From Acidobacteriota bacterium (GTDB taxonomy: Bacteria > Acidobacteriota > Vicinamibacteria > Vicinamibacterales > UBA8438), in the NCBI GenBank assembly GCA_009861545.1, contig VXME01000029.1, positions 306 through 64,305 of the forward strand: 64,000 nt of DNA, written 5' to 3'. Below are positions 25,086 to 44,838 of this stretch, one piece after another. How positions within the stretch are numbered: position 1 is the stretch's first letter; the number at the start of each line of letters is the position of its first letter. Both the position numbers and the translations under genes were made by a program. The notes beneath the pieces were generated by a model. The model made no database searches. It saw only the letters and a program-made list of their open reading frames with translations, and was not told the DNA's origin.

Positions 25086-25615
25086 GCGGAGTCAGCATCA
25101 CACTCCTCTGCGAGGACTTGCAGACGGATGCGTTCGTGCGCCGGTTCCTGAGGCACCGCAACTTCCGCGGCCGGGACATCCGTACGCTCCCCCTTCCCGG
25201 CGGTCGCCAGTCGGGCGAGCAATGGGTTCGCGAACGCTATCCGACGGAACTGCGAGCAATTCGCAGAAGGCAGGGCGTCTACCTGATAGTTGTAACGGAC
25301 GCGGACACCCATTCGACAGCGGTTCGACGTGCGCAGTTGGACGCGGCGTGCGACGAGAAGGAGACTCGGAGAAGAGACGACAATGAGCCGGTTCTCGTGA
25401 TTGTGCCGCGGAGGAACATCGAGACGTGGCTGGCGTTTCTCGGCGGAATGACGGTCGATGAGGACACGAAGTACCGGAAGCTGAAGCGCGAGGGAGACTG
25501 CGTCGCTCAGGCGGACGCCCTGTTCAGGATGTGTCACGAGGTGCAGAGGCTCGACGAAGGTGCTCCGCCTTCGCTACGAGAGGCATGCGAGGAGTACCCC
25601 AAGCTCCAGCGGTAG
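25082..25615 (+). CDS. TOPRIM-like/DUF4276-like partner protein, module B
   Basis: GTG at 25082 overlaps the ATPase stop (GTGA). Motifs ITLLCEDLQTDAFV, LIVVTDADTH and NIETWLAF are shared with the other partner proteins in this window. Confidence 0.6.
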   Translation: MSGVSITLLCEDLQTDAFVRRFLRHRNFRGRDIRTLPLPGGRQSGEQWVRERYPTELRAIRRRQGVYLIVVTDADTHSTAVRRAQLDAACDEKETRRRDDNEPVLVIVPRRNIETWLAFLGGMTVDEDTKYRKLKREGDCVAQADALFRMCHEVQRLDEGAPPSLREACEEYPKLQR

Positions 25616-27841: not shown

Positions 27842-27868
27842 GCCGACCGCGGTGCACCATCGTCACCG

Positions 27869-30800
27869 ATGAACACCCCGACGACGCCGACGGAAGGACA
27901 GATCCTGACCGGCCCGCTCTTCAACGAGCCGATGCGCGTGGAGACCGTCGCCGAGACGGGGCCGGGGAGTTGGACGCTCGGCCTGGTCGGCACGCGGTCG
28001 GAACGATTCCGGAAGGTCTCCCTCGGGACGGCCGAGCTGGTGGGACTGACAGTTCTTGACAGCGGTTTCCGGTACGACGGAGACGGCGCGCTGCTGCGGT
28101 TGGGCCTGCAGGCGCACGCGCTCGGGATTGCTTGGGAGTTCGATCCCTACTTCGGGTTGTCGGTCTCCCGCGTGGATCCGCTGCCGCACCAGTTGGAAGC
28201 GGTCTACGACCACCTGCTGAAGCTGGCGCGCGTGCGGTTCCTGCTGGCCGACGATGCCGGCGCCGGGAAGACGATCATGGCCGGGCTGCTGATCCGCGAA
28301 CTCCAGTTGCGCGGTCTCGCGGAGCGGATCCTGGTCGTCGCGCCGTCGAACCTCGCCTTCCAGTGGCAGCGCGAGTTGCAGGAGAAGTTCGACGAGACGT
28401 TCGTGGTGCTGAAGGGAAGCGAGTTGCGCGCGCAGTTCGGCGTGAACCAGTGGATGCAGCAGCCGAAGGTGGTGACGTCGCTGGATCTTGCCAAGCGCGA
28501 GGAGATCCTGCCGGGCTTGCGGCAGGTGCACTGGGATCTGGTCGTCGTGGACGAGGCGCACCGGATGTCGGCGCGCGACGAGTCGCACAAGAGCCAGCGC
28601 TACAAGTTGGGCGAGCTGCTGCGGGATTCGTCCGACCACATCCTGCTGCTGACCGCGACGCCGCACAAGGGGGATCCCGAGAACTTCTCGCTCTTTCTGC
28701 AACTCCTCGACCGCGACGCCTACGCCGACGTGCGTTCAATCCGGCAGGCGATGGACGCTGGGCGCGCGCCGTTCTACTTGCGGCGCACGAAGGAGGCGAT
28801 GGTCTACTTTCCGCAGCGGGACGAGAACGGGGAGTGGGCGGCGCGCAAGATCTTCACGAAGCGTATTCCGAGCACCGTCGACTTCAAGATCGACGGCTCG
28901 GAGTTCGAGCTGTACCGGGAGGTGACGGAGTTCGTGAAGCGGCAGAGTATCCGGGCAGCGGCAGAGGGCAACGATCCGCGCGCCCGCGCCGTGGGCTTCC
29001 TGATGGCGCTCTACCAGCGGCGCCTGGCGTCGAGCACGCGGGCCATGCGGCGCAGCCTCGGAAACCGTGCCGACCGTCTGGAGCGCGGGCTCGCGCAGGC
29101 CGAGGATCTCGTGCGCACCGCGCCGCCGGACCTGCCGAGCATGGACGAGCTCGACGAGATGGAGGAGCGCGACCGTGAACGATTGGAGCGGTTGCTCGAC
29201 GCGATCACGCTGGCCGGAAATGCCCAGATGGTGCGCCAGGAGATCGCGGAGCTGAGAGCGCTGGCCGTCAAGGCAGAGAACGTCGAGCAGGCGGGCGTCG
29301 AGGCGAAGCTGGCCAAGTTCGAAGACCTTCTGCGCGGCCAGGGGTTCTTCGACCGCCCGGATCAGCGGTTGGTCCTCTTCACGGAGTTCAAGGACACCCT
29401 CGACTACCTCGTCGAGAAGCTCGAAGCCTGGGGCTTCAAGGTGGCGACGATCCACGGCGGCATGAAGCCGGGCGCGCGGGACGAGGCAGGGACCAGGCTC
29501 CACGCCGAGCAGCAGTTCCGCGAGGGTGCGGTCCAGGTGCTGGTGGCGACCGAGGCCGCGGGCGAGGGGATCAACCTGCAGGTCTGCAACATCCTCTTCA
29601 ACTACGACATCCCGTGGAATCCGAACCGCCTGGAACAGCGCATGGGGCGCATCCACCGCTACGGCCAGGAGAAGGACTGTCTGATCTTCAACTTCGTCGC
29701 CACGAACACCATCGAGGGGCATGTTCTCCAGCGCCTGCTCGACAAGCTGCAGGAGATCCGCGACGCGCTCGACGACGACGCAGTGTTCAACGTCGTCGGC
29801 GAGGTGTTACCCGCAGCCTATGTGGAGCGCGTCCTGCGCGACTACTACGCCGGCCGGCTCGGTGGCGAGGATCTGGAAGAGCGGCTGTTGCGGGACGTCG
29901 ACGAGGGCCGCTTCCGCAACATCTGCCAGAACGCCCTGGAGGGACTGGCGACGAAGAACCTGAACCTGGAGATGCTGGTCGAGCGGCGCGCCCGCGCCCG
30001 CGAGCGCCGGGTCGTGCCGGAGACCATCGCACGCTTTCTGCGGGACGCCGCGCCGCTGGCGCCGCTGAAGCTCGATTTCATCGGTGGGTTGGCGCACACG
30101 TTCGTGCCGGGGCGCACGCCGGCATCGCTGCGCCGCTACGAGCGCGAACCCGACTGGAGGCTGCCGGAGCTGGCGATGCGTTATCCGCGTTGCAGCACGG
30201 ATCGCGACACCGCCCAGAAGAACGCGCTCGAATGGGTCACGCCGGGCCACCCACTTTTCGAGGCCGTGCGCCGCCATGCGCGCGAGCAGGCGCTCGAGCC
30301 GCTGGCGTGCGGCGCCACCTTCTATTCGCTCGCACACAACGCGCCGACGCGGATCGACTTCTACCGGGCACGGGTGGTCGACGGACTCGGCCACGTCGTG
30401 CATGAACGGGTCTTCGCGGTGGAACTGGCCGGTGACAACGAGCCGTGCCGGTGCGAGCCGGGTGTGCTCGGCGACCTGAGCCCGGCTCCCGTCCCGGACA
30501 CGTTGCCGGCGATCGCGCACCGGCCGGAGCCGGTGTCCTGGCTCCAGGAGCACGTCCTCGTACCGTTCCTCGATGCCACGCGCGCCGAGCGTCTGGCCGA
30601 GGTCGAGCGCGTTGCGGATCACGTCGAGCTCTCGCTCACGGAGCTTCTGCAGCGGACCGACGAGGAGATCGGGCGGGCTGCCGACGACGTGGACGAGGGT
30701 CGCCAGGGCGCAGAAGGGCGACTCGCCATGGCCGAGGTGCGGCACGCGGAGCTGCTGGCGCGCCGCGAACGGCGGCGTCAGGAACTCCAACAGCAGCAAG

Positions 30801-31303
30801 CGCTCTCGCTGCAGGGAGTCGAGCGGATGACCAGCTTGCTGGTTCTGCCGCATCCGGACCGCGGCGCCGCCGAGGTGACGCGTCACCAGCCCGGACCGGA
30901 GACCGAGGCGACGGCGATGCGGGTTGTCATGGACCACGAGCGGGGCCGGGGGCGGCACGTCGAGGACGTGAGCGCGAAGAACCTCGGCTACGACGTCACG
31001 AGCCTCGACCCGGCGTCCGGCGACCTCCGGCTGATCGAGGTCAAAGGTCTCGCGGCCGCGACCGGCACGATACTGCTGACTCCCAACGAACGCCGCGTCG
31101 CCGAGGACCGGCCGGACTGCTACTGGCTGTACGTCGTCACCAACTGCAGCGAGACACCGGTGCTCCAGGAACCGATCGAGAACCCGGCCCGGTTCCCGTG
31201 GCACGAGGTGACGAAGGTGCAGCATTACTATCTGAAGGTCGACGCCATGACGCGGCCGATGCGGGTGCGCGACGACCGGCCGGAGTACGGAGCGGAGACA
31301 TAG
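27869..31303 (+). CDS. SNF2-like superfamily-2 helicase with C-terminal DUF3883 (PD-(D/E)xK nuclease-like) domain
   Basis: Motif I LADDAGAGKT, motif II VVVDEAHRM, motif III LLLTATPHKG, helicase-C with motif VI QRMGRIHRYGQ. C-terminal LGYDVTS...LRLIEVKG...YWLYVV matches the DUF3883 restriction-endonuclease-like pattern. Confidence 0.85.
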   Translation: MNTPTTPTEGQILTGPLFNEPMRVETVAETGPGSWTLGLVGTRSERFRKVSLGTAELVGLTVLDSGFRYDGDGALLRLGLQAHALGIAWEFDPYFGLSVSRVDPLPHQLEAVYDHLLKLARVRFLLADDAGAGKTIMAGLLIRELQLRGLAERILVVAPSNLAFQWQRELQEKFDETFVVLKGSELRAQFGVNQWMQQPKVVTSLDLAKREEILPGLRQVHWDLVVVDEAHRMSARDESHKSQRYKLGELLRDSSDHILLLTATPHKGDPENFSLFLQLLDRDAYADVRSIRQAMDAGRAPFYLRRTKEAMVYFPQRDENGEWAARKIFTKRIPSTVDFKIDGSEFELYREVTEFVKRQSIRAAAEGNDPRARAVGFLMALYQRRLASSTRAMRRSLGNRADRLERGLAQAEDLVRTAPPDLPSMDELDEMEERDRERLERLLDAITLAGNAQMVRQEIAELRALAVKAENVEQAGVEAKLAKFEDLLRGQGFFDRPDQRLVLFTEFKDTLDYLVEKLEAWGFKVATIHGGMKPGARDEAGTRLHAEQQFREGAVQVLVATEAAGEGINLQVCNILFNYDIPWNPNRLEQRMGRIHRYGQEKDCLIFNFVATNTIEGHVLQRLLDKLQEIRDALDDDAVFNVVGEVLPAAYVERVLRDYYAGRLGGEDLEERLLRDVDEGRFRNICQNALEGLATKNLNLEMLVERRARARERRVVPETIARFLRDAAPLAPLKLDFIGGLAHTFVPGRTPASLRRYEREPDWRLPELAMRYPRCSTDRDTAQKNALEWVTPGHPLFEAVRRHAREQALEPLACGATFYSLAHNAPTRIDFYRARVVDGLGHVVHERVFAVELAGDNEPCRCEPGVLGDLSPAPVPDTLPAIAHRPEPVSWLQEHVLVPFLDATRAERLAEVERVADHVELSLTELLQRTDEEIGRAADDVDEGRQGAEGRLAMAEVRHAELLARRERRRQELQQQQALSLQGVERMTSLLVLPHPDRGAAEVTRHQPGPETEATAMRVVMDHERGRGRHVEDVSAKNLGYDVTSLDPASGDLRLIEVKGLAAATGTILLTPNERRVAEDRPDCYWLYVVTNCSETPVLQEPIENPARFPWHEVTKVQHYYLKVDAMTRPMRVRDDRPEYGAET

Positions 31304-31320
31304 GGCGTCCAGGAGAGTTG

Positions 31321-32478
31321 ATGAGCAGGGATCTGCGGTTCCGGCGTCTGCGGCTGCGCAACTGGAAGAACTTCCTGCGCGTGGACGTTGCCCTTCAGGA
31401 CCGCCTGTTTCTCGTGGGAGCGAACGCGTCGGGGAAGTCCAACTTCCTGGATGCCTTCCGGTTTCTCCGGGATATCGCCCTCTCCGGCAGCGGGTTCCGT
31501 GAAGCTGTTCTCCACCCTCGGCGCGGCGGAGTCAGCGGCATTCGTTGCCTGGCGGCTCGTCAGTACCCAGACGTGGAGATGACGGTTCACCTCGAAGAAG
31601 AGGGCGGCGGTGTCGCCTGGGAGTACGAGATTGCGTTTCACCAGGACAAGCAGCGGCGCCCGCGCATCCGAACGGAGCGCGTGAGTCGTGACGGAAAGGC
31701 GCTGGTCAAGAGACCGAACAAGCAGGATTCCGCAGATCCGGAGCGGCTCACCCAGACCTACCTGGAGCAGGTCAACGTCAATCAACGGTTTCGGGAACTG
31801 GTTGCGTTCTTCAGCTCCATCCGCTACCTGCACCTGGTGCCGCAGTTGGTCCGCGAGCCCGATCGGTCAGTCGGTCGCCCCAACGATCCTTTCGGCGGTG
31901 ATTTTCTGGAGCAGGTCGCCAAGACGCAGGAACGCACGCGGACTGCCCGGCTCGGTCGCATACAGCGTGCCCTGCGGGTGGCGGTGCCGCAACTCGAGCA
32001 GATCGATCTGTGGCGCGACGCGCGCGGCACGCCGCATCTGCGGGGCAAGTACCAGCACTGGCGAGCGCGGGGGGCGTGGCAGAGCGAGGAGCAGTTCTCC
32101 GACGGGACCCTCCGTCTGATGGGTTTGCTCTGGGCGGCGATGGACAAGGGAGGTCCGTTGCTGCTCGAAGAGCCGGAGCTGTCGCTCCATCCCGAAATCG
32201 TACGCGTGCTGCCGCAGATGCTGGCCCGCGTGCAGCGCCGAAGCGGCCGGCAGGTGTTCGTGAGCACGCACTCTCCAGACCTGCTGCGTGATGAGGGCAT
32301 CGGCCTCGACGAGGCGATGCTGCTGGTGACGAGTGCCGAAGGTACCGAAGTGGTACCGGCCAGCTCGAACCAGGAAGTGCGCAAGCTGCTGGAAGGGGGC
32401 CTGTCTCTTGCCGAAATCGCCATACCGAAGACGCGACCGAAGAACGCCGCCCAGCTCGCGCTGTTCGGAGACGCGTGA
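31321..32478 (+). CDS. ABC/SMC-type AAA ATPase (defence-associated, module C)
   Basis: Walker A VGANASGKSNFLDA, signature-like QFSDGTLRLMG, Walker B PLLLEEPELSLHP, H-loop VSTHSP. ATG lies 17 nt after the helicase stop. Confidence 0.8.
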   Translation: MSRDLRFRRLRLRNWKNFLRVDVALQDRLFLVGANASGKSNFLDAFRFLRDIALSGSGFREAVLHPRRGGVSGIRCLAARQYPDVEMTVHLEEEGGGVAWEYEIAFHQDKQRRPRIRTERVSRDGKALVKRPNKQDSADPERLTQTYLEQVNVNQRFRELVAFFSSIRYLHLVPQLVREPDRSVGRPNDPFGGDFLEQVAKTQERTRTARLGRIQRALRVAVPQLEQIDLWRDARGTPHLRGKYQHWRARGAWQSEEQFSDGTLRLMGLLWAAMDKGGPLLLEEPELSLHPEIVRVLPQMLARVQRRSGRQVFVSTHSPDLLRDEGIGLDEAMLLVTSAEGTEVVPASSNQEVRKLLEGGLSLAEIAIPKTRPKNAAQLALFGDA

Positions 32479-33086
32479 CGGTGTCGGCCGCGGTGACCGT
32501 CTCTGCGGCGGTTGAGGGAAGCCTCGACGAAGCGGTCGTTGACCGGCTCATCCGTCACGTCGGAGGGCATCCCGGCACGGTCTACGGCAAGAACGGCAAG
32601 CCGTTTCTCAGAGACCGGATCCGCGGCTACAACAACGCCGCGCATCACGCTCCGTGGGTCGTGCTCGTCGACCTCGACACGGAAGGAGAATGCGCACCGT
32701 CAGTACGTGACGCGTGGTTGCGGCAGCCCGCTCCGCGGATGTGCTTTCGAGTCGTCGTACGAGCGATCGAGGCGTGGCTCATGGCGGACGCGGAGCGGCT
32801 GGCGGCCTTCATCGGGGTCGCGCGGAGCAGGGTGACCGCGGACCCCGAGGGGTTGGACCATCCCAAACAGACCATGGTCAACCTGGCGCGTCTGTCGCGT
32901 CGCCGCGATGTTCGCCGGGACATGGTCCCGCGCCAGGGGAGCGGCCGGACCGAGGGATCGGCCTACGCGTCGCGGCTGATCGAGTACGCTACCGACCGCT
33001 GGCGGCCGGACGTGGCCGTCCTACGTGCGGACAGCCTGCGGCGCGCTGTCGCGTGTCTGCAACGGCTGAGTAGCGAGGACGCCTGA
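32475..33086 (+). CDS. DUF4276-like TOPRIM-like partner protein, module C
   Basis: GTG at 32475 overlaps the ATPase stop (GTGA). Motifs AAVEGSLDEAVV, VVLVDLDTE and AIEAWLMAD. Confidence 0.6.
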   Translation: MTVSAAVTVSAAVEGSLDEAVVDRLIRHVGGHPGTVYGKNGKPFLRDRIRGYNNAAHHAPWVVLVDLDTEGECAPSVRDAWLRQPAPRMCFRVVVRAIEAWLMADAERLAAFIGVARSRVTADPEGLDHPKQTMVNLARLSRRRDVRRDMVPRQGSGRTEGSAYASRLIEYATDRWRPDVAVLRADSLRRAVACLQRLSSEDA

Positions 33087-33100
33087 CACGAGAGGGTGCG

Positions 33101-35206
33101 ATGCACGAGGTGAAGTCGATCCAGGACCTGCTGAATCAGATCAGCCGCGACGAGATCCTGCTGCCCGAGTTCCAGCGCGGCTACGTCTGGAACCGCGATC
33201 AGGTGCGCGGGCTGATGCAGTCGCTCTACCGCAAGCATCCGACTGGCCATCTGCTGATCTGGCGCACGTACAAGCCGTCGCTGGTTCGCGGCGGCGAGGC
33301 GGCGCGCGACGGGCATTCGTTGTTGTTGCTCGACGGACAACAGCGCCTGACGACGCTCTACGTGCTGTTCAAGGGCGAGGCGCCGCGGTTCTACGAGGGT
33401 GAGTCGCTGTTCTTCGATCTGCACTTCAACATGCAGACCGAGGAGTTCCGCTTCTGGCAGAAGTCGCGCATGGAGAACAACCCGGCGTGGATCGGCGTCC
33501 ACGAGTTCCTGCAGGAGGGACTGACCGCTCTGCTCGAACGGTTGGAACAGATCGACGAGGAGCGGCGCAGAGTCATCCAGCAGAACTTAGCTCGGCTGGG
33601 TCGCTTGAATAGCGTCCGCGACTATACCTACACCGTCGATCAGGTGTCGGGCGACCACTACAGCGTCGAGCAGGTTGTCGACATCTTCAACCGGGTCAAC
33701 AGCAGAGGGACGCCTCTCACGAGGGCCGACCTCGCCCTGGCGTACGTTTGCAGCCTTTGGCCGGAGGCCCGGGCAGAGTTGCGCACTTTCAGCGGCAAGA
33801 TGGCGGAGCGCGGCTTCGCTGTCGACCTGAATTTCCTCGTGCGCTGTCTGGCGGCCGCCGCGACCGGCTCGGTGCTGTTGGAAGGGTCCTTTCTGAAGAC
33901 TCCTGCGCCGACGTTGCAGGACGCCTGGGAGAAGATGCAACCGGCGTTCGAGCATTTGGTGAGTGTCCTGCGCCAGGAGGCGTTCATCGGTGGTCTCGAC
34001 GACCTGCCGACCAATTTCGTGCTGATTCCAGCCACCATCTACCTGGCGCGCCAGGGCGGCCAGTTTCCGAGCGACGCGATCCGGCGGCGCTTCCTCCGCT
34101 GGATCTTCCTCGCCGGGCTATGGGCCCGTTATTCGGGTTCGACCGATACCAAGCTCCAGCAGGACGTGGCGCTGGTGTCTGGGCGCGACCTGGACCCGAC
34201 GCACGAGTTGGAAGCGGCGATTCTCCGTGAGCGCGGGCGAGTCACCCTGCAGGAAGGGGACCTGGAGCGCGCCCGCATCGACTCATCGGTCGCGCGCCTG
34301 AGCCGGATCGTGGCGCGGCATCGAGACGCTCGGGACTGGTTCACGGGCTTGCGCATCTACGACTCGGTGACCGGCAAGAACCTGGGCGAAGAGCGACACC
34401 ACATCTTCCCCAGACGGGTGCTCGAAAAGGCCGGATTCGACGATACGACACGGATCAACGCCGTGGCCAACCGGGCCATTCTCGGGCAGCGGGCCCCGAA
34501 GGAGTACCAGGGGATGTCGCCCGCAGAGTATCTCCCGGAGGTCGACGAGCATCAGCCAAGCGCCTTGCGAGCGCAGTCGGTGCCGATGGACCGCGCACTC
34601 TGGCAGCCCGAGCGCTTCCTCGATTTCCTGGCGGCCCGCCGGCGTCTGCTGGCCGAGGCGATGAACGAGTTCATCGCCGGGTGGCTCCCGGAGAAGGAGG
34701 CGGACCCCGAGCAACACGTGCGCGCGCTGATCGCCGTCGGCGAAAGTGAGACGCTGGAGTTCAAGTCGAGCCTGCGCTGGGACCATCGTGAGGAGCGGGT
34801 CAACAAGGCGCTCGAAGGGGTGGTGGTCAAGACGCTCGCCGGATTCCTGAACGCGGCGGGCGGCACGCTCCTCATCGGCGTCGACGACGGCGGTGCACTC
34901 GTCGGACTCGCGGCGGACTATGCAACGCTCAATAAGCAGGATCGCGACGGGTTCGAACTCCACCTGCAGAACGTCCTCGCCCGCGATCTCGGCGAGGCTG
35001 CATCATCGTCGTTCTTGACCGTGAACTTCCACGAGATCGACGGGCAGGATATCTGCCAGGTTACGGTGGAGCCGAGCGACCATGCGATCTACGTGGAGTA
35101 CAAGAACGAAGCAATCCTCTATCTGCGCGTCGGCAATCTGACCCGGCCGCTTCCCGTCAAAGAGGCCGTCCAGTACGTCGGGCGCCACTGGGGGAAGACG
35201 GCGTGA
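33101..35206 (+). CDS. DUF262 (ParB-like nuclease/NTPase) - DUF1524-like His-Me finger - AlbA_2 (Schlafen-like) fusion; GmrSD-like type IV restriction candidate
   Basis: N-terminal LPEFQRGYVW...LLLDGQQRLTTL (DUF262). Mid-region FNRVNSRGTPLTRADL. ERHHIFPRRVL...NAVANRAIL (HNH/His-Me, DUF1524-type). C-terminal ESETLEFKSSLRWD...GFLNAAGGTLLIGVDDGG (AlbA_2-type). Confidence 0.8.
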   Translation: MHEVKSIQDLLNQISRDEILLPEFQRGYVWNRDQVRGLMQSLYRKHPTGHLLIWRTYKPSLVRGGEAARDGHSLLLLDGQQRLTTLYVLFKGEAPRFYEGESLFFDLHFNMQTEEFRFWQKSRMENNPAWIGVHEFLQEGLTALLERLEQIDEERRRVIQQNLARLGRLNSVRDYTYTVDQVSGDHYSVEQVVDIFNRVNSRGTPLTRADLALAYVCSLWPEARAELRTFSGKMAERGFAVDLNFLVRCLAAAATGSVLLEGSFLKTPAPTLQDAWEKMQPAFEHLVSVLRQEAFIGGLDDLPTNFVLIPATIYLARQGGQFPSDAIRRRFLRWIFLAGLWARYSGSTDTKLQQDVALVSGRDLDPTHELEAAILRERGRVTLQEGDLERARIDSSVARLSRIVARHRDARDWFTGLRIYDSVTGKNLGEERHHIFPRRVLEKAGFDDTTRINAVANRAILGQRAPKEYQGMSPAEYLPEVDEHQPSALRAQSVPMDRALWQPERFLDFLAARRRLLAEAMNEFIAGWLPEKEADPEQHVRALIAVGESETLEFKSSLRWDHREERVNKALEGVVVKTLAGFLNAAGGTLLIGVDDGGALVGLAADYATLNKQDRDGFELHLQNVLARDLGEAASSSFLTVNFHEIDGQDICQVTVEPSDHAIYVEYKNEAILYLRVGNLTRPLPVKEAVQYVGRHWGKTA

Positions 35207-38200
35207 TCCCGCGCGAGTGCAAGCGCCTCGCGGAGGTGGACTTCCCGATCTCCGTGGTGTCGAAGCACGCGGCGCGGGAGAAGTCCATCCGGCACGGGCA
35301 TCCCTCGACGCTGCACTTGTGGTGGGCGCGCCGACCACTCGCGTCGAGCCGGGCCGTGCTATTGGCCCTGTTGTTGCCGGACCCGTGTGATTCCCGTTGC
35401 CCGGAGGAGTTCAAGTGGAAGGCGAGGGAGATTCTGAGCGCTGTGCGGCAGCCGCCCGCGAACGACGTGGAGCTGCGGAGGGCGCTTCTGTGGTTCATCG
35501 GAACGTTCGCCAACTGGGACATGGCGGCGCATCCGACCTACCTGCAAGTGGGGCGCAACCTTGTGCGGACGGCGCACGGGGAGGAGGCCCCGTTGGTGGT
35601 GGATCCGTTCGCGGGCGGCGGGTCGATTCCGCTGGAGGCGCTCCGGCTCGGCTGCGAGGCGTTCGCGAGCGACCTGAACCCCGTGGCGTGTCTGATCCTC
35701 AAGGTCATGCTGGAGGACATCCCGCGCCACGGGCCGAAGCTGGCCGATGAGTTGCGTCGTGTCGGTGGCGAGATCAAGGCCGCGGCGGAAAAGGAACTGG
35801 CCGACCTTTATCCGGCGGACCCGGACGGTGCGACACCGATAGCCTATCTTTGGGCGCGGACGGTGCGGTGCGAGGCGCCGAATTGCGGAGCCGAGATCCC
35901 CTTGATGCGGTCGTTCTGGTTGTGCAAGAAGGGCCGGCGCAAGCGGGCGTTGCGACCCCACGTCGTGCGCGCTGAGGACGAGTTGCCGCGGGTCGAGTTC
36001 GAGATCTTCGAGCCGCGTGCGGACAAGGATGTGGGCGCGGGCACCGTGGCGCGTGCGAAGGCCACCTGTGTGTGTTGCGGCGCGGTGAAGCCGCCGGAGC
36101 GCGTTCGGGCGCAACTCGCGGCACGACGGGGCGGAGCGGACGTCATCTTAGACGAGCAGGGTCGCCGCACGGGCGGCGCGTTTCTGGTTGCCGTGGTCAC
36201 GCTGAAACAGGACGAAACGGGACGCCAGTACCGACTGCCGACCGAGCGGGACTACGAGGCAGTAGGCAAGGCGCAGTCACGAGTGGCCGGGGTCCTCGAC
36301 GAGTGGGAACGCAACAGGCGCGGTCTTTGCCCGGTTCCTGATGAACCGCTTCCCTCCATAGGCACGCTCGGCTTTCGCGTTCAGCGCTACGGCATGCTCC
36401 GATGGGGGGATCTGTTCACGGCGCGACAGAAGATGGCACTGTTCCTTCATGCCCGTTTGTGCGACTCCATTCCCGATGACGAGCGCCTAAAGCGGTGTAT
36501 CGGACTGTCGCTAAGCGGCGTTGCAGACAGAAACGTTTCGCTGGCCACGTGGCGACCCCAAGCGGATCAAGAGAAAGTCGAACACTTGTTCACAAGACAT
36601 GCCCTTCCTATGGCATGGGACTTCGGCGAGGCCGTTCCGCTGAGTGATTCCACCGGTAGCTTCGGTGACAGACTGGGCGTCCTCGTCAGGACAGTTTCAG
36701 CGATGGCGGAGAACGGTCAAGCAGAGTATGCCGCAACCTCGACTCAGGCCGCCGACGCCACCAACCACCCTCTCCCCGACGAAACCGCCGGGGTCTGGTT
36801 TACCGATCCGCCCTACTACGACGCTATTCCTTACTCCGATCTCTCGGACTTCTTCCTCGTCTGGCTCCGGCGCGCCCTGCCCGACCAGCCGTTGCTGCGC
36901 GATCCGTTTGATGCCGGCAACCCGCTGTCGCCGAAGACAGCCGAGGCAGTGCAGGACGAAACTAAGGAAGTCCACGGAAGACCGAAGGACCGCATGTGGT
37001 TCGAGGAGACGATGGCCCGCGTGTTCGCGGAGGGCCGCCGCTTGCTTCGCGAAGACGGCGTAGGCTCCATCGTCTTCGCGCACAAGACCACCGAGGGCTG
37101 GGAGGCGCTTCTCTCCGGCATGATTCGAGGTGGCTGGACCATCACCGGATCGTGGCCCATAGCCACGGAGATGGGCTCAAGGCTGCGCGCGCGCGACTCC
37201 GCTGCCCTCGCCACAAGCATCCACTTGATCTGTCGACCGCGTCCAGAAGACGCGAGGACTGGTGACTGGGCGGAAGTTCTGCGCGAGCTGCCCCGGCGAG
37301 TCGGGGAATGGATGGAGCGTTTGCAGGACGAGGGTGTTCGAGGTGCGGACCTCGTATTCGCCTGTATCGGACCGGCACTGGAGATTTTCAGCCGCTATTC
37401 ACGAGTCGAGACCGCGGATGGAAGTGAGGTGACGCTGCCGGAGTACCTGGAAAAGGTCTGGGAGGTCGTCGGCCGCACGGCGCTAGAGAACGTCCTCGGC
37501 GCAGCGGAAGCGAAGGCCCGCAACGGCCTTGCCGGCGCGCTTGAAGAGGACGCGAGACTGACGGCCCTCTTCCTCTGGACGCTCCAGGCGACCACCGACG
37601 AAGGGACCCAAGACTCCGCTGATGACGACGGTGCGCCGGGCGACGCCGAGGACGAATCAGAACACGGCGGGTCCGCCGACAAGGCGAAGGGTTTCTCTCT
37701 GGTCTTCGACGTCGTGCGACGCTTCGCCCAGCCGCTGGGCATCGATCTCCCGAAGTGGGAGAAACGCACCATCGAGACGAAGAAGGGTGTGGTTCGCCTG
37801 CTGCCTGTGGCTGAGCGGGCGAAGCAGCTTTTCGGCGAGCGCGGGGCGCAGGACGTCGCGGCGTGGCTGGAACAGGAGGAGGCAACCGGAACCGACGCGC
37901 TACAGGGCGTGCTGTTTCCGGACCGACAGGAGAGAATCGGGTCCGCCGTCAGAGAGCGGCGACCGCGGTACGGCGATGCCGACAACGTGTCGGACGAACG
38001 TACCGGCACGACGACGCTCGACCGGGTCCACACGGGGATGTTGCTCCAAGCCGGCGGGCGCACCAACGCGTTGCGGGCGCTTGTACAGGCGGAGCAGGAG
38101 CGCGGCCCCGACTTCCTGCGCTTGTCGAACGCCCTTTCCGCGCTGTATCCGCGTGGCAGCGAGGAGAAGCGCCTGCTCGACGCGATGCTCCTGGCGGTTC

Positions 38201-38208
38201 CGAAATAG
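35203..38208 (+). CDS. DUF1156 domain DNA methyltransferase with Zn ribbon (DPPY motif IV)
   Basis: N-terminal hallmark EVDFPISVVSKHAAREKSIRHGHPSTLHLWWARRPLASSRA. SAM-binding VVDPFAGGGSIPLEA. Cys pairs CEAPNCG...CVCCG. Catalytic FTDPPYYD. GTG at 35203 overlaps the upstream stop (GTGA). Confidence 0.85.
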   Translation: MIPRECKRLAEVDFPISVVSKHAAREKSIRHGHPSTLHLWWARRPLASSRAVLLALLLPDPCDSRCPEEFKWKAREILSAVRQPPANDVELRRALLWFIGTFANWDMAAHPTYLQVGRNLVRTAHGEEAPLVVDPFAGGGSIPLEALRLGCEAFASDLNPVACLILKVMLEDIPRHGPKLADELRRVGGEIKAAAEKELADLYPADPDGATPIAYLWARTVRCEAPNCGAEIPLMRSFWLCKKGRRKRALRPHVVRAEDELPRVEFEIFEPRADKDVGAGTVARAKATCVCCGAVKPPERVRAQLAARRGGADVILDEQGRRTGGAFLVAVVTLKQDETGRQYRLPTERDYEAVGKAQSRVAGVLDEWERNRRGLCPVPDEPLPSIGTLGFRVQRYGMLRWGDLFTARQKMALFLHARLCDSIPDDERLKRCIGLSLSGVADRNVSLATWRPQADQEKVEHLFTRHALPMAWDFGEAVPLSDSTGSFGDRLGVLVRTVSAMAENGQAEYAATSTQAADATNHPLPDETAGVWFTDPPYYDAIPYSDLSDFFLVWLRRALPDQPLLRDPFDAGNPLSPKTAEAVQDETKEVHGRPKDRMWFEETMARVFAEGRRLLREDGVGSIVFAHKTTEGWEALLSGMIRGGWTITGSWPIATEMGSRLRARDSAALATSIHLICRPRPEDARTGDWAEVLRELPRRVGEWMERLQDEGVRGADLVFACIGPALEIFSRYSRVETADGSEVTLPEYLEKVWEVVGRTALENVLGAAEAKARNGLAGALEEDARLTALFLWTLQATTDEGTQDSADDDGAPGDAEDESEHGGSADKAKGFSLVFDVVRRFAQPLGIDLPKWEKRTIETKKGVVRLLPVAERAKQLFGERGAQDVAAWLEQEEATGTDALQGVLFPDRQERIGSAVRERRPRYGDADNVSDERTGTTTLDRVHTGMLLQAGGRTNALRALVQAEQERGPDFLRLSNALSALYPRGSEEKRLLDAMLLAVPK

Positions 38209-38234
38209 ACGCCACTGTGACTCGAGGTAATGCC

Positions 38235-39599
38235 ATGGAACAGATTCGGTTGAAGAACTTCCGTTGCTTTCGGGAGGCCCAGGCCGCACGGCTCGCCCCA
38301 CTTACCCTACTCGTAGGTGAGAACAGCACGGGCAAGACGTCGTTCATGGCTCTTATCCGGGCGCTATGGGACGTTGCGCATCGGCGTGCCGTTCCTGGCT
38401 TCAAGGAACCTCCTTACGACCTTGGCAGCTTCGACGAGATGGCCCATTATCGCAAGGGGAAAACCGGCCGGGCCGTGAGTTTCGAGGCGGGGTTTGATGT
38501 GACTCCCCTTGCGAGTTCCGGACAGGATCGAGAAAAAGACGCCGCCGGCCGGCTACATCACTTCGATGTGACGTTTTCGAGAAGAGGGACCATTCCGATT
38601 CCGTCCAAGTGGCGGCTTGCTTGCGAGGATGTATGGATCGAGGAGCGTCTCAACAAGGACTCGTCCCGGTGGATTCACTTCGGAACAGCGAACGGCGAAT
38701 GGCGCCGGAAGGTGCCGGCTGACGTCGAGGCGGGCATTCCTGCCGATTTTCAGATCGTGACATCGTTGTCATGGTACCTGACAACAGCGCCTCATGGAAA
38801 TACCGACATCCAGCCGTTGGCTGACTCTCCATCGATCTCCGAACAGGACCGAGGACGAATCAATCGGCTCGTTCTTGGCTCTGGCCTCCACGGTTTTTTT
38901 CTTACGGAGCAACGGCCCTTCGCTAGCGCGCCTGTTCGCTCCAAGCCGCGCCGGACGTATGATCCCTCGCGGCCTTCGAGGGAGCCTGAAGGAGAAAACG
39001 TTCCAATGTATCTTTCCACGGCGTTCTTCGAGGACAAGAAGTCGTGGGCGGCACTAAAGAACGCGCTTGAGGAGTTTGGACACGATGCGGGGCTGTTCGA
39101 CGAGATCTCGGTCAGGCCCTTGGGAAAGAGAGGGAGCGAACCATTTCAGATGCACGTACGGAAATTCGGAAGACGAGCCAAGGGGCCGATGCGCAACCTG
39201 ATCGACGTCGGCTACGGCGTCAGTCAGGTACTGCCAGTTGTTACCGAGCTGTTCCGGGACAACGAAACACCCATATTCCTCCTGCAGCAGCCAGAGGTGC
39301 ATCTTCATCCTAGCGCCCAGGCCGCCCTCGGAAGCCTCTTCTGCAGGATCGCCGAAGAGCACCGGCAGGTGGTGGTCGAGACGCATAGCGATCACCTGCT
39401 CGACCGGGTGCGCATGGACGTGCGTGATGGTAGGCCAAGGTTGAAGCCCGAGGATGTGTCGATCCTCTTCTTCGAGCGTAGCGATCTGGATGTCAGGATC
39501 CACTCGCTCCGTCTAGATCGGCAAGGTAACATTCTGGACGCGCCGCCGAGTTATCGGCGTTTCTTCATGAACGAGACGCGACGGTCACTGGGGCTCTGA
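38235..39599 (+). CDS. ABC-type AAA ATPase (DUF3696-like C-terminus), module D
   Basis: Walker A VGENSTGKTSFMAL, Walker B IFLLQQPEVHLHP, H-loop VVVETHSDHLLDRV. N-terminal IRLKNFRCF. Visibly less GC-rich than its flanks. Confidence 0.8.
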   Translation: MEQIRLKNFRCFREAQAARLAPLTLLVGENSTGKTSFMALIRALWDVAHRRAVPGFKEPPYDLGSFDEMAHYRKGKTGRAVSFEAGFDVTPLASSGQDREKDAAGRLHHFDVTFSRRGTIPIPSKWRLACEDVWIEERLNKDSSRWIHFGTANGEWRRKVPADVEAGIPADFQIVTSLSWYLTTAPHGNTDIQPLADSPSISEQDRGRINRLVLGSGLHGFFLTEQRPFASAPVRSKPRRTYDPSRPSREPEGENVPMYLSTAFFEDKKSWAALKNALEEFGHDAGLFDEISVRPLGKRGSEPFQMHVRKFGRRAKGPMRNLIDVGYGVSQVLPVVTELFRDNETPIFLLQQPEVHLHPSAQAALGSLFCRIAEEHRQVVVETHSDHLLDRVRMDVRDGRPRLKPEDVSILFFERSDLDVRIHSLRLDRQGNILDAPPSYRRFFMNETRRSLGL

Positions 39600-39601
39600 C
39601 G

Positions 39602-40069
39602 ATGTGCGCCATTCTGGACAACAGCGTCGTGCACGAGGTGTTTGGAGACAGGCGGTCGCCAGCGGGCGAGGCGTTCTTCAGGTGGATCAGTGTCGGGGGT
39701 GGGCGTCTGATCGGCGGCGGCAGATTGCTCAGAGAGCTTGCACGGAACGAGAACTTCTGGTTCTGGTGGCGAGAGGCAGTGCTCGCAGGACTGGCGACAC
39801 GCTTGGGCGACGGCACGGTGGAGGAGGAGACGACTCGATTGGTCGAGCGGGAGGCATGCCAATCGAACGATGAACATGTCGTCGCTCTGGCCGTGGTCGG
39901 CGGAGCTCGGTTACTGTACTCGAACGACAAGAAGCTGCAGCGTGACTTCAAGAACAGGCATCTGGTCAATCATCCGCCTGGAAGGGTGTATTCCACGCGT
40001 CGTAGCGGCGCCTTCACGCGAAAGAAGAGGGAGCTCCTTGCAGGGAGTTCTTGCAGGATAGCCCCATGA
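39602..40069 (+). CDS. PIN-like nuclease domain protein (putative), module D partner
   Basis: ATG lies 2 nt after the ATPase stop. Acidic positions are arranged as in PIN folds (AILDNSVV...; SNDEHVVALA; LLYSNDKKLQRDF). Assignment is tentative. Confidence 0.45.
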   Translation: MCAILDNSVVHEVFGDRRSPAGEAFFRWISVGGGRLIGGGRLLRELARNENFWFWWREAVLAGLATRLGDGTVEEETTRLVEREACQSNDEHVVALAVVGGARLLYSNDKKLQRDFKNRHLVNHPPGRVYSTRRSGAFTRKKRELLAGSSCRIAP

Positions 40070-40085
40070 AGTCGCTGTCGAGTTA

Positions 40086-40766
40086 GATGCCCGTGCGGGG
40101 CCACGCGTTCGAGGCGTTCTCGTTTCCGGCCGGCGGTCTGCCGACGCTTCTGAATCAACCGGACGCGCGGTTCTTTCTGGAAGTCGACCTCTCCGTTGGG
40201 TAGGAGCGGTGCCGTGTCGCGTGGAACCGAGGATCGAGCTCGGGTCGGGACGGCTCAGCGGGGCTGACGAGTACCTCGCACTCGTAGGGCGTACGGGCAA
40301 TCCGAAGGGGATCCCGGCCATCGAACGCGTCGATTCCAAACTCCACGTGCGACGCAAGGGGAGGCCGGCGCATCCGCGACAGGAGCCGGTCGGCATGAAT
40401 CACGCAATCCTGTCGGATCGCAGTCTCGCCGGCGACGAATAACGCTGGCTGGAAGCCGTGCGCGACGAACTCGGCGACTGTTGCACGCATTTTCTCGGTT
40501 CAGGCCTGGAGATGCGCGCGTCACGGCCCCCGGCCGACGTTTTTTCGATGCGGTCTGCATGGAGAGAGCATCGGACCCTTCCTGTACAAGCTGCGGGCCG
40601 AGCGGGCCGACGAGCCGAAACGCTTCGCGGCCGCCTCCCGCACGCTCCGGACTATCGTCCCGAGCGTGGAATCGCTGGCCGTTCAACTCGACGAGCGCCG
40701 CGGCACGCTCGGACGGAGGACGACCTGTTCGAGAACCTGCTGCTGCGGGGTCTGATCGACGAGTGA
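40086..40766 (+). pseudogene. Truncated, frameshifted copy of the module-E ABC ATPase gene
   Basis: Nucleotide and peptide similarity to 42300..42925 plus 43320..43370 (VRGHAFEAFSFPAGGLP; IELGSGRLSGADEYLAL...PAHPRQEPVGMNHAILSDRSLAGDE; LFENLLLRGLIDE*). It lacks Walker A. It is interrupted by TAG/TAA stops and frame changes, and has an internal deletion of the Walker B/H-loop region. Confidence 0.85.
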
Positions 40767-42128: not shown

Positions 42129-43370
42129 ATGCTGAAGAAGCTGACGGTCCGCAACTTCAAGTCGCTCATGGACGTGAGCGTGGAGTTTCCGTCCCTGGCG
42201 GTGCTCTTCGGACCGAACGCCGCTGGAAAAAGCAACCTGCTGGATGCCATCGCAGCACTGTCCTGGATCGGCAACGTGCGCACGCTCTCCGACGTGTTGG
42301 ATCGGCCGCTGCCGGTACGGGGCCACGCCTTCGAGGCGTTCTCGTTCCCGGCAGGAGGTCTGCCGGCCCTGCTGAAGCAACAGACCGCCCGGTTCTCGCT
42401 GGAAGCCGATCTCGCGGTGGAGGCCGAGCTGTACAGGTATCGCGTCGAGCCGAGCATCGAGTTGCGGTCAGGTCGTCTCAGCGTGGCCGACGAATACCTC
42501 GCCCTCCTAGGGAAGAACCGCAATCCGAAGGGAACGCCGGCGATCGAGCGGGTCGAATCGAGTCTCCGCGTGCGGCGCAAGGGGAAGCCGGCGCACCCGC
42601 GCCAGGAGCCGCTCGGCATGAATCACGCGATCCTCTCCGACCGGAGTCTTGCGGGCGACGAGTACCGCTGGCTGGAAGCTGTTCGCCTGGAACTGGGCGA
42701 GTGGTGCACGCACTATCTCGATCCGGGCCTAGCGATGCGCGCCCCGCGGGCCCCGGCCGATGTCTTCGATGTCGGTGTTCACGGGGAATACATCGGACCC
42801 TTCCTGTACAAGTTGCGAGCCGAGGAGCCGAAGCGCTTCGAGGCAGTCTCCCGCACGCTGCGCTCCATCGTTCCCAGCGTCGAGTCGCTGGCCGTGTATC
42901 TGGACGAGCGCCGCGGCACGCTGGACATTCTGATTCGTCAGGGGGGCGTGGAGTACTCGACTCGCATCGTTTCCGAGGGCACCCTTCGCGTGCTCGCCTT
43001 GTGCGCCATCGCCGTGAATCCGTGGGGAGGCTCTCTGGTCGCGTTCGAAGAGCCGGAGAACGGCGTCCACCCGCGGCGGCTCGATCTCATTGCCCGCCTC
43101 CTGATCTCGTTGGCATCGGACGGGGGGCGTCAGGTCATCGTGACGACCCACTCGCCGCTGTTCTGCGACGCCGTGCTGAAGCACGCGTCCTCCCTGCAGG
43201 GAGACGTCGGTCTCTTCAACGTTCGTCGTGTCGGGCAGGCCACGAGCATCGACCCTTTCGACCCAACCGGGCCGTTGTTCAAGGACAGCGAAATCGCGGC
43301 AGCACTCACGAGCAATGCCGAGGACGGTCTGTTCGAGAACCTGCTGCTGCGAGGCCTGATCGATGAGTGA
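42129..43370 (+). CDS. ABC/SMC-type AAA ATPase (defence-associated, module E)
   Basis: Walker A FGPNAAGKSNLLDA, signature-like VSEGTLRVLAL, Walker B LVAFEEPENGVHP, H-loop VTTHSP. N-terminal LTVRNFKSL. Confidence 0.8.
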   Translation: MLKKLTVRNFKSLMDVSVEFPSLAVLFGPNAAGKSNLLDAIAALSWIGNVRTLSDVLDRPLPVRGHAFEAFSFPAGGLPALLKQQTARFSLEADLAVEAELYRYRVEPSIELRSGRLSVADEYLALLGKNRNPKGTPAIERVESSLRVRRKGKPAHPRQEPLGMNHAILSDRSLAGDEYRWLEAVRLELGEWCTHYLDPGLAMRAPRAPADVFDVGVHGEYIGPFLYKLRAEEPKRFEAVSRTLRSIVPSVESLAVYLDERRGTLDILIRQGGVEYSTRIVSEGTLRVLALCAIAVNPWGGSLVAFEEPENGVHPRRLDLIARLLISLASDGGRQVIVTTHSPLFCDAVLKHASSLQGDVGLFNVRRVGQATSIDPFDPTGPLFKDSEIAAALTSNAEDGLFENLLLRGLIDE

Positions 43371-43992
43371 TTCCCTCGCTGTGGATCTCTTCGTCGAGGA
43401 CCTCGCTCATGAGGTGTTCGTCGGGGCGCTGGTCGACCGGATCGCCCGAGAAGAAGATGTCGCGTTGAGCCTCCAGGCTCGGTCGGCGCGTGGCGGTCAC
43501 CCGCGCGCGTTGGAGGAGTTCGGGACGTATCAGGTGTTGGTCGAGAAGGGGGCGCTCACGAAGCGCACACCGGATCTGGTGGTCGTCGTCATCGACGGCA
43601 ACTGCGCCACGCCTCGTAAGAAGAGGGAGGAGATCCGGAGGGTGACGAGGCCGGCGCTTCTGGACCGGGTTGTCACGGGTTGCCCGAACCCGCACGTCGA
43701 GCGCTGGTTTCTGGCGGATCCTGATTCGTTCCACAACGTGGTCGGCTATCAGCCGGTGGTCGGTCCCGAGAAGTGCGAGCGGGAACACTACAAGCGGATT
43801 CTGGCGGACGCGGTTCGCCGCGGGCAGCAGCCGGCGACGCTCAGCGGGATCGAGTTCGCGGCTGAGCTGGTGGAGGCGATGAATCTCTACCGGGCCGGCA
43901 GAAGGGACTCGTCATTGAGAGCTTTCGTGGGCGATCTTCGTGGACGTTTCCGCGAGATTCGGCGTCGAGAAGGAGTGGGGGGCGCCCAATGA
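43363..43992 (+). CDS. DUF4276-like partner protein, module E (DxD replaced by IDGN)
   Basis: ATG at 43363 overlaps the ATPase 3' end by 8 nt. Motifs DLFVEDLAHEVFV, VVVVIDGNC and HVERWFLAD align with the partners of modules B and C. Confidence 0.6.
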   Translation: MSDSLAVDLFVEDLAHEVFVGALVDRIAREEDVALSLQARSARGGHPRALEEFGTYQVLVEKGALTKRTPDLVVVVIDGNCATPRKKREEIRRVTRPALLDRVVTGCPNPHVERWFLADPDSFHNVVGYQPVVGPEKCEREHYKRILADAVRRGQQPATLSGIEFAAELVEAMNLYRAGRRDSSLRAFVGDLRGRFREIRRREGVGGAQ

Positions 43993-44386: not shown

Positions 44387-44838
44387 GGATCCTGCTCGAC
44401 ACCGACGTCCTGGTCGCCGCCTTCGCGACCCGCGGATTCTGCCTGGACATTCTGCAACTCGTGCTCGCCGAGCACCGGCTGGTCGTCGGCGAGACGATTG
44501 TCGAAGAACTCGAACGGATTCTCCGGGAGAAGCTCCGCCTGCCGGCCACGCGTGTCCGCGAGGTCGTCGGATTCGTTCGTGATCAGGCGGACATCGTGAC
44601 GCCGGTCGCGCCAGCGACATGGCCCGATACCGATCCGGCCGATCGATGGATAGCCGCGGCTGCGATCGTCGGGGCGGTGGACGTTCTTGTGACTGGCGAC
44701 AGGGATCTGCTCGATGCGCGGCCGGCGGCGGGTTTACGGATCGTGACGCCCAGAGGGTTGTGGGAACTGCTCCGTGCGGCGCGGCTTGGCGAGCCGGTCG
44801 AGGAGCGCGTGAGGAGACAGGCACGTAATGGCGCTTGA
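44383..44838 (+). CDS. PIN-domain toxin (type II TA)
   Basis: RILLDTDVLVAAF (first acidic residue), DRWIAAAAIVGAVDVLVTGDRDLL (C-terminal acidic pair). 151 aa. Confidence 0.8.
   Translation: MRILLDTDVLVAAFATRGFCLDILQLVLAEHRLVVGETIVEELERILREKLRLPATRVREVVGFVRDQADIVTPVAPATWPDTDPADRWIAAAAIVGAVDVLVTGDRDLLDARPAAGLRIVTPRGLWELLRAARLGEPVEERVRRQARNGA

Follow-up and report, generated by a model that had tools for sequence, protein, structure and literature searches.

What is encoded by a gene that overlaps the start of a DNA methyltransferase gene, and do the two form a functional unit? The question is raised by an open reading frame of 701 amino acids (aa) at positions 33101 to 35206 of a 64,000-nucleotide stretch of DNA from an Acidobacteriota bacterium (contig VXME01000029.1), the whole of which we refer to as the window. 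The DUF1156 methylase encoded immediately downstream is HmaB of the PADLOC-defined Hma (helicase-methylase-ATPase) system. An initial annotation read the frame as a fusion of a DUF262 domain, a DUF1524-like HNH domain and an AlbA_2 domain, proposed the last as a nucleic-acid sensor, and regarded the product as a modification-dependent nuclease coupled to the methylase. From sequence and predicted structure, we consider it probable that the product is instead a single-polypeptide anti-phage enzyme of the DUF262-Schlafen (pSlfn7-type) class, in which a BrxU/GmrSD-like body is joined to a Schlafen RNase, and that its gene is autonomous mobile cargo in the slot between hmaA and hmaB, with no dependence on the Hma methylase. 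The gene and its parts are as follows.

33101..35206, + strand: the BrxU-like/Schlafen fusion gene, ATG start, 701 aa (open reading frame list and translation; full-length homologues at 66-95% identity)
33119..33748, + strand: DUF262/GmrSD_N (ParB/Srx-like NTPase) domain, residues 7-216 (Pfam PF03235, E 1.4e-31)
33749..34300, + strand: all-helical linker, residues ~217-400, as in BrxU (secondary structure of an AlphaFold2 model; hhalign and Foldseek alignments with BrxU cover the linker)
34301..34690, + strand: His-Me (DUF1524-like HNH) nuclease domain, residues ~401-530 (hhalign to BrxU; PADLOC HEC-05)
34739..35203, + strand: Schlafen/AlbA_2 domain, residues 547-701 (Pfam PF04326, residues 548-684, E 1.2e-16)
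35203..35206, + strand: GTGA, in which the stop codon overlaps the start of hmaB (read in the sequence: TGA 35204-35206, GTG 35203-35205)

The four motifs on which the initial annotation relied (DGQQR, HHIFP, ETLEFKSSL and GGTLLIGVDD) are all present. PEFQRGYVW (residues 22-30) and DGQQR (residues 78-82, nucleotides 33332-33346) lie inside the DUF262 domain, the latter aligned by hhalign on the DGQQR of BrxU; S41, nearly invariant in the family, stands opposite BrxU S42, an RLFDS-type motif serine, by our reading of the same alignment. The AlphaFold2 model is helical at residues 208-407. Beyond it, HHIFP occupies residues 433-437 (nucleotides 34397-34411) and is followed by N453 and by N457-R458 (nucleotides 34457-34474). 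The C-terminal domain carries an exact match to Ex4ExK, E548-SETL-E553-F-K555 (nucleotides 34742-34765), with ETLEFKSSL beginning at residue 550, and GVDD (residues 593-596, nucleotides 34877-34888) forms the end of GGTLLIGVDD (587-596). A Shine-Dalgarno-like GAGAGGG lies a few bases 5' of the ATG. At the far end of the gene, the overlap with the methylase gene is as originally described, and the GTG start of hmaB is supported by tblastn of HmaB against related loci, which aligns from residue 1.

The three-domain layout is likewise borne out, two of the domains by Pfam and the middle one by profile and structure comparisons with BrxU. As reference we used BrxU from plasmid pEFER (L022:18711-20474), compared by hhalign with a family alignment of 40 sequences. 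The two matched with a probability of 99.8% (E 1.2e-28) over 501 columns, residues 5-529 of the query being set against 6-575 of the 587 residues of BrxU, and ERH433-H434-IFP falling on HVD474-H475-IYP. BrxU (7p9k) was also the best match of a phmmer search against PDB sequences. Foldseek aligned an AlphaFold2 model, built on the family alignment (mean predicted local distance difference test score 89.2), with the same PDB entry (E 1.2e-16, 617 columns), and the PADLOC model HEC-05 covers residues 73-525 (E 1.1e-43). The protein thus combines a DUF262 domain bearing DGQQR with a His-Me domain bearing a (D/H)-H-I-x-P motif and a downstream Asn, the marks of GmrSD and BrxU enzymes, though Pfam PF07510 is silent on the second. 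No NCBIfam family matched the fusion protein. We conclude that all three domains are real and that the body is BrxU-like along the entire length of BrxU; the assignment to the GmrSD family, with an added AlbA_2/Schlafen module, stands. BrxU itself cleaves DNA containing 5-methylcytosine (5mC), 5-hydroxymethylcytosine (5hmC) or glucosylated 5hmC (glc-5hmC), functions independently of the BREX (bacteriophage exclusion) system, and loses both DNA cleavage and defence when H475 is replaced by alanine (PMC8565348).

The added module has a catalytic rather than a passive appearance. In phmmer alignments its Ex4ExK segment and GVDD fall on active-site segments from Slfn8/13 and SLFN11, and Foldseek matched the C-terminal domain to DIP2311, the DNA-binding/tRNase domain of SAMD9, SLFN13, SLFN11, SLFN14 and SLFN5. 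Perez Taboada et al. (PMC13056530) identify Ex4(E/D)xK as the active site conserved between the Schlafen RNases of prokaryotes and humans, and tRNase effector activity has been demonstrated for Schlafen domains of prokaryotes (PMC13056530, PMC13462974). Because Ex4ExK is complete here and invariant among close relatives, and because prokaryotic Schlafens have been shown to act in this way, the domain is more likely to be a tRNase effector than a sensor, and the sensor role first proposed for it finds no support.

Residue conservation was assessed across 117 full-length close relatives with at least 69% identity. DGQQR is present in every one of them, as is each of E548, E553 and K555 (117/117), together with R458 and F436; H433 is found in 115 and N453 and N457 in 116 each. 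The counterpart of BrxU H475, H434, is replaced in 60 of the 117 (H 57, Y 44, R 9, F 3, L 3, S 1), and parsimony on a FastTree phylogeny requires at least 23 switches between His and other residues, against a mean of 39 for shuffled states. Constraint within the family is thus tighter on the Schlafen and NTPase motifs than on the general base of the DNase, which favours a selected effector over a passive sensor as the role of the Schlafen domain. The window copy retains H433-H434, N453 and N457, and because H434 is kept it may be a genuine two-nuclease enzyme. A bolder proposal, which we advance tentatively and regard as possible rather than probable, is that the BrxU chassis in this cross-phylum clade is turning from a DNA cutter into an NTP (nucleoside triphosphate)-gated infection sensor for the Schlafen tRNase, the window copy representing a two-headed form that would cut both DNA and RNA. 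The notion that the Schlafen domain "took over" from the DNase is suggestive only. On the bolder view, the metal and DNA ligands of the His-Me site (H433, N453, N457 and R458) hold nearly constant while H434 toggles, as do, without exception, the NTPase and Schlafen motifs. The toggling might itself be of adaptive value, as a way of inactivating the DNase wherever it would attack the marks on the host's own DNA. The state of this residue showed no association with Hma context at the related loci described below (inside Hma, H 5 and non-H 6; outside, 3 and 3). At one locus in Ectothiorhodospiraceae (L004:2096-4195), an in-frame stop interrupts DGQQR (DGQ*R), marking either a pseudogene or an assembly error.

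By analogy with BrxU, binding and hydrolysis of NTP by DUF262 would gate a conformational or oligomeric switch upon the sensing of phage nucleic acid. Such a switch might license the His-Me DNase, whose motif is intact in the window copy, to act on phage DNA, or the Schlafen RNase, or both, and the Schlafen head would then cut tRNA or other RNA and so stop translation. The effector conserved throughout the family would be the Schlafen head, the general base of the DNase being often lost. The scheme is modelled on the NTP-driven dimer-to-monomer switch and H475-dependent DNase of BrxU and on the trigger-dependent cleavage of tRNA by prokaryotic Schlafens. Dependence on DNA modification should not be assumed, since a DUF262-Schlafen protein of Escherichia coli, EcoSlfn7, is strongest against phage T7, the DNA of which is not known to contain hypermodified bases.

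The fusion is widespread. A word-indexed protein search returned 5,213 proteins at E<=1e-3, and the best 120 clusters of these matches share 69-95% identity with the window protein; the full-length ones are of ~700 aa, all with PF04326 and PF03235, and those that are named are called "DUF262 domain-containing protein". With more than 5,000 matching database proteins, and with length and both Pfam domains constant throughout the best 120 clusters, the three-domain match is far beyond chance. Close relatives span at least seven bacterial lineages. Exhaustive comparison with 50%-identity representatives gave 13,399 matches, 819 of them below 1e-30. Dozens of these relatives are full-length with all three domains, at 26-53% identity, and others, of ~530 aa, have two domains and end before the Schlafen tail. 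The survey of architecture frequency that the initial annotation recommended thus yields at least 120 clusters at 69-95% identity, in addition to relatives at ~33% identity in rhizobia and haloarchaea. Other relatives bear Pfam-unannotated C-terminal extensions of 100-450 aa, and it seems that variable modules are generally attached to the BrxU-like chassis at its C-terminus.

Some individual architectures may be recorded alongside these counts. Five of the 50%-identity representatives (P0177, P0178, P0180, P0182 and P0171) have a BrxU-like core (1-530) followed by 250-450 aa with no Pfam match. Proteins of ~779 aa encoded in two other genomes (G007:C4:4857269-4858504 and G010:C2:6979064-6980296) match only residues ~301-699, that is, the end of the linker, the His-Me domain and the Schlafen domain, at ~30% identity, and may carry another N-terminal module in place of DUF262. 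The genome from which the window derives holds, on another contig (G000:C67:38411-38881), a second Schlafen-type domain with 36% identity to residues 540-695, inside an open frame of ~1,199 aa. This frame represents a different prokaryotic Schlafen architecture, and similar frames of ~1,200-1,360 aa occur in related genomes.

The initial annotation knew of no description of the three-domain architecture; literature on it, and on nesting in Hma, nevertheless exists. Of 5,930 catalogued Schlafen proteins of prokaryotes, 1.8% are fusions of the DUF262-Slfn kind (Perez Taboada et al., Nat Microbiol 2026, PMC13056530). One of these, EcoSlfn7 of strain UC4224, gives E. coli protection against a wide panel of phages, with the plating of T7 reduced ~540-fold (PMC13056530). 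Cargo nested in Hma operons has been published as HEC-01 to HEC-09 (Payne et al. 2024, bioRxiv 10.1101/2024.01.29.577857); the same authors report GmrSD-like proteins as frequent Hma cargo and HEC-05 as 99.2% identical to BrxU. Among the additional domains of GmrSD proteins catalogued by Machnicka et al. (2015), AlbA_2 does not appear. With a Schlafen domain containing Ex4(E/D)xK and its fusion to DUF262 in one 701-aa frame, the window protein has the features of the DUF262-Slfn class. Fusion architecture and nesting in Hma are both already published, then, and the window gene is a well-preserved example of them. When an E. coli member was sought in the clusters of distant relatives, only metagenome-assembled genomes of Terrybacteria and Elusimicrobia were named.

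The relation of the gene to the methylase was examined at 18 related loci (66-92% identity), drawn from a scan of species-representative genomes and compared, with flanks of up to 10 kb on each side, by tblastn with the Hma and cargo proteins of the window. They come from Vicinamibacterales, Dehalococcoidia, Latescibacterota, Planctomycetota, Spirochaetia and, among the Gammaproteobacteria, Ectothiorhodospiraceae and Immundisolibacterales. Twelve lie inside Hma systems, nine in intact HmaA|HmaB slots, two in HmaB|HmaC slots and one in a degraded system. Only two (L002 and L015) abut hmaB as in the window. At seven others, 0.7-4 kb separate the fusion gene from hmaB, and the gaps for which open reading frames were listed hold unrelated cargo: a nucleotidyltransferase (MNT) and HEPN-like pair, TIR-like frames and large ATPases, labelled by eye from their N-terminal sequences. 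Differing cargo precedes hmaB at L001:12091-12847, L003:12091-12810, L014:12225-16207 and L017:13400-15644. In L011 and L013 the fusion gene follows hmaB. The flanks of the remaining six contain no Hma genes, and the fusion gene sits there amid housekeeping or IS genes, with CoaBC, a Na+/H+ exchanger, an amidohydrolase, a CBS protein, an IS30-type transposase and an AAA_14/DUF4143 ATPase as neighbours. Further afield, full-length relatives with ~33% identity occur by themselves in parts of Sinorhizobium meliloti pSymA and Haloquadratum walsbyi PL100 that are rich in defence genes, and another at ~33%, in the halophilic archaeon DL31, adjoins a DUF1156 system without lying inside it. Of 15 genomes in the genus of the window, only 4 have the gene at full length, and fragments of it are present in two others.

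Judged from these gene neighbourhoods, the fusion gene behaves as an autonomous, horizontally moving module. Horizontal transfer is indicated by identities of 66-92% across distant lineages and by the patchy presence within one genus. The GTGA overlap would reflect tight packing in the window operon, the coupling being incidental, because the 12 loci in Hma occupy varying positions, two abut hmaB and six have no Hma genes in their flanks. The physical overlap noticed at the outset is genuine and the functional unit read into it is not upheld; co-occurrence with DUF1156, which the initial annotation asked to be checked, extends to 12 of the 18 loci and adjacency to two. The companion claim that the specificities of nuclease and methylase must be compatible is not supported, the gene being one of several independent cargo modules.

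Two of the related loci have unusual structures. In L002 (12109-15803), a 26-codon 5' remnant of hmaB directly follows the fusion gene, succeeded by a second complete hmaA, another hmaB remnant and then a full hmaB; the arrangement looks like the scar of a cassette exchange or duplication by recombination between conserved ends of Hma core genes. In L018 (8273-12604; also G002:C1:698668-699129), the Hma system is decayed, with hmaA, hmaB and hmaC fragmentary, and an internal deletion joins residues ~65-141 of the fusion protein to ~617-699.

Alternative explanations differ chiefly in which parts of the protein they take to be active and in the role they give to the methylase. That the product is a classical type IV, modification-dependent enzyme, with the His-Me DNase as sole effector and AlbA_2 as a non-catalytic binding or sensor module, was the view of the initial annotation. 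It draws on the full-length homology to BrxU, on the DGQQR and HH...N...N motifs intact in the window copy, on the cleavage of 5mC-, 5hmC- and glc-5hmC-DNA by BrxU (PMC8565348), and on a DNA-bound SAMD9 domain (7ksp) among the Foldseek matches of the C-terminal domain. An Ex4ExK invariant in all 117 close relatives is, however, hard to square with a pure binding module; 60 of those relatives lack the residue essential in BrxU and yet remain intact frames of 700 aa; and EcoSlfn7 does best against T7 (PMC13056530), the phage discussed above. We regard this explanation as unlikely. The converse, that the BrxU-like body cuts no DNA even in the window copy and serves as an NTP-gated sensor for a Schlafen tRNase in a defence resembling abortive infection or translation arrest, accords with the frequent loss of the general-base His beside an invariant Schlafen motif and DGQQR, and with the model of Perez Taboada et al., in which fused domains are sensors and Slfn the effector (PMC13056530). 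Against it, H433-H434, N453 and N457 are kept in the window copy, giving no sequence reason for a dead DNase, and relatives that have no Schlafen domain have lost the His just as often. We consider it very unlikely.

The least probable explanation in our view makes the gene an obligate partner of the DUF1156 methylase, in a pair resembling restriction-modification whose stoichiometry is set by the coupling and whose methylase protects the host or makes the substrate. The GTGA overlap, the same abutment in L002 and L015, and the position of BrxU 16 nucleotides upstream of pglX in pEFER could all be cited for it. Conserved adjacency and co-occurrence, by which we tried such a pairing, were nonetheless wanting: gene order varies, with hmaB abutted at only 2 of 17 other informative loci, seven gaps of 0.7-4 kb filled by unrelated cargo where frames were listed, and the gene placed after hmaB in L011 and L013, while 6 of the 18 loci have no Hma genes in their flanks. 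The relatives at ~33% identity on pSymA and PL100 stand alone, the state of H434 is unassociated with Hma context, and BrxU is independent of BREX (PMC8565348).

We therefore prefer an autonomous DUF262-Schlafen enzyme, a reading against which several points must be set. Pfam PF07510 (DUF1524) gave no match to the excised middle region even at E<=10. The likeness to EcoSlfn7 is one of described domains and not of aligned sequences, and EcoSlfn7 was tested by plaque assay alone, its mechanism not being dissected (PMC13056530). Independence from Hma is drawn from gene neighbourhoods. Schlafen fusions are not alone in losing the general-base His: among the 50%-identity representatives it is lost in 10 of 37 proteins with a Schlafen domain and 11 of 60 without (Fisher p = 0.32); we therefore make no claim that the Schlafen domain replaced the DNase. 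H433, N453, N457 and R458 are, moreover, nearly invariant even where H434 is lost, and the His-Me site of such proteins may keep a role in DNA or metal binding or use another base.

Within the window, the fusion gene is nested among the Hma core genes on the same strand, as one of several cargo modules. The surrounding features are these.

27869..31303, + strand: HmaA, a core gene, SNF2 helicase with a NOV_C/DUF3883 tail (PADLOC HmaA E 3e-168; Pfam SNF2-rel_dom, Helicase_C, NOV_C)
31336..33086, + strand: HEC-01-type cargo pair, an ABC-type ATPase at ~31336-32478 (start approximate; PADLOC HEC-01A E 1.2e-153) and a DUF4276 partner at 32475-33086 (HEC-01B E 6e-65)
35203..38208, + strand: HmaB, a core gene, DUF1156 DNA methyltransferase (PADLOC HmaB E 6.7e-112; Pfam DUF1156 E 1.6e-22)
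38235..40069, + strand: cargo, an ABC-type ATPase at ~38235-39599 (start approximate; NsnB E 3e-44) and a small PIN-like protein at 39602-40069 (HEC-03B E 6.6e-30; weak Pfam PIN)
42129..43992, + strand: second HEC-01-type cargo pair, an ATPase at 42129-43370 (HEC-01A E 4e-48, AAA_21) and DUF4276 at 43363-43992 (HEC-01B E 2.7e-5, Pfam DUF4276)
44828..47635, + strand: HmaC, a core gene, DUF499 ATPase (PADLOC HmaC E 6.3e-100; Pfam DUF499)

A scan of positions 27000-40500 for promoters and terminators gave counts no higher than in shuffled sequence, and transcription units were therefore judged from gene spacing alone; the fusion gene is probably co-transcribed with the Hma operon. Membership of a Menshen (NsnABC) system was considered and rejected: the NsnA match is weak (E 1.1e-9) and confined to the DUF262 part (residues 5-211), and the NsnB-like ATPase, found on the far side of hmaB, has no counterpart at most related loci. 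Outside the operon, at 23973-25615, an AAA_21 ATPase and a small partner (weak HEC-01B match) stand upstream of an Ada/AlkA gene and would constitute a third HEC-01-like pair.

While the locus establishes no new category, it offers a clean and intact example, with all three sets of motifs, of a defence class whose tested member, EcoSlfn7, is characterised by plaque assay. The pattern within the family, in which the Schlafen and NTPase motifs are invariant and the general base of the DNase is repeatedly lost, provides a testable hypothesis as to which head does the work, and the locus illustrates the use of Hma operons as landing pads for interchangeable defence cargo.

The protein may be compared with several known systems. 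To BrxU (Escherichia fergusonii pEFER; 7p9k/7p9m; equivalent to PADLOC HEC-05) it is linked by homology along the whole length, by DGQQR and by HHIFP in the place of DHIYP. Each gene is also housed in a more extensive defence operon that includes a methylase, and immediately precedes the methylase gene: in pEFER (L022:18711-24143), BrxU is 16 nucleotides upstream of the BREX methylase gene pglX, paralleling the window gene upstream of hmaB. The two proteins nonetheless share only ~20-23% identity, the first residue of the nuclease motif is H in the window protein and D in BrxU, the host operon is Hma in the one case and BREX in the other, and the window protein alone has the additional C-terminal Schlafen domain of ~155 aa. 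The Hma-embedded candidates (HEC) resemble it in location, since the gene sits co-oriented between Hma core genes with HEC-01-type and ATPase-PIN cargo as neighbours; no AlbA_2 or Schlafen extension is mentioned, however, for HEC-05 or HEC-06 (10.1101/2024.01.29.577857). With mammalian SLFN11, SLFN13, SLFN14 and the tRNase domain of SAMD9, the window protein shares the fold of its C-terminal domain, as detected by Foldseek, and the Ex4ExK and GVDD segments, but it has a single lobe only, fused to a prokaryotic restriction-enzyme body in place of a helicase or SAMD9-type architecture. In domain description it resembles the DUF262-Slfn class represented by EcoSlfn7, which similarly unites an N-terminal DUF262 and a C-terminal Schlafen domain with Ex4(E/D)xK in one polypeptide and forms a single-gene unit in defence islands. 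From this class the window protein differs in its origin, a high-GC soil-type bacterium, in its setting inside Hma, and in a His-Me/DUF1524-like middle domain of a kind neither mentioned nor analysed in the published account (PMC13056530).

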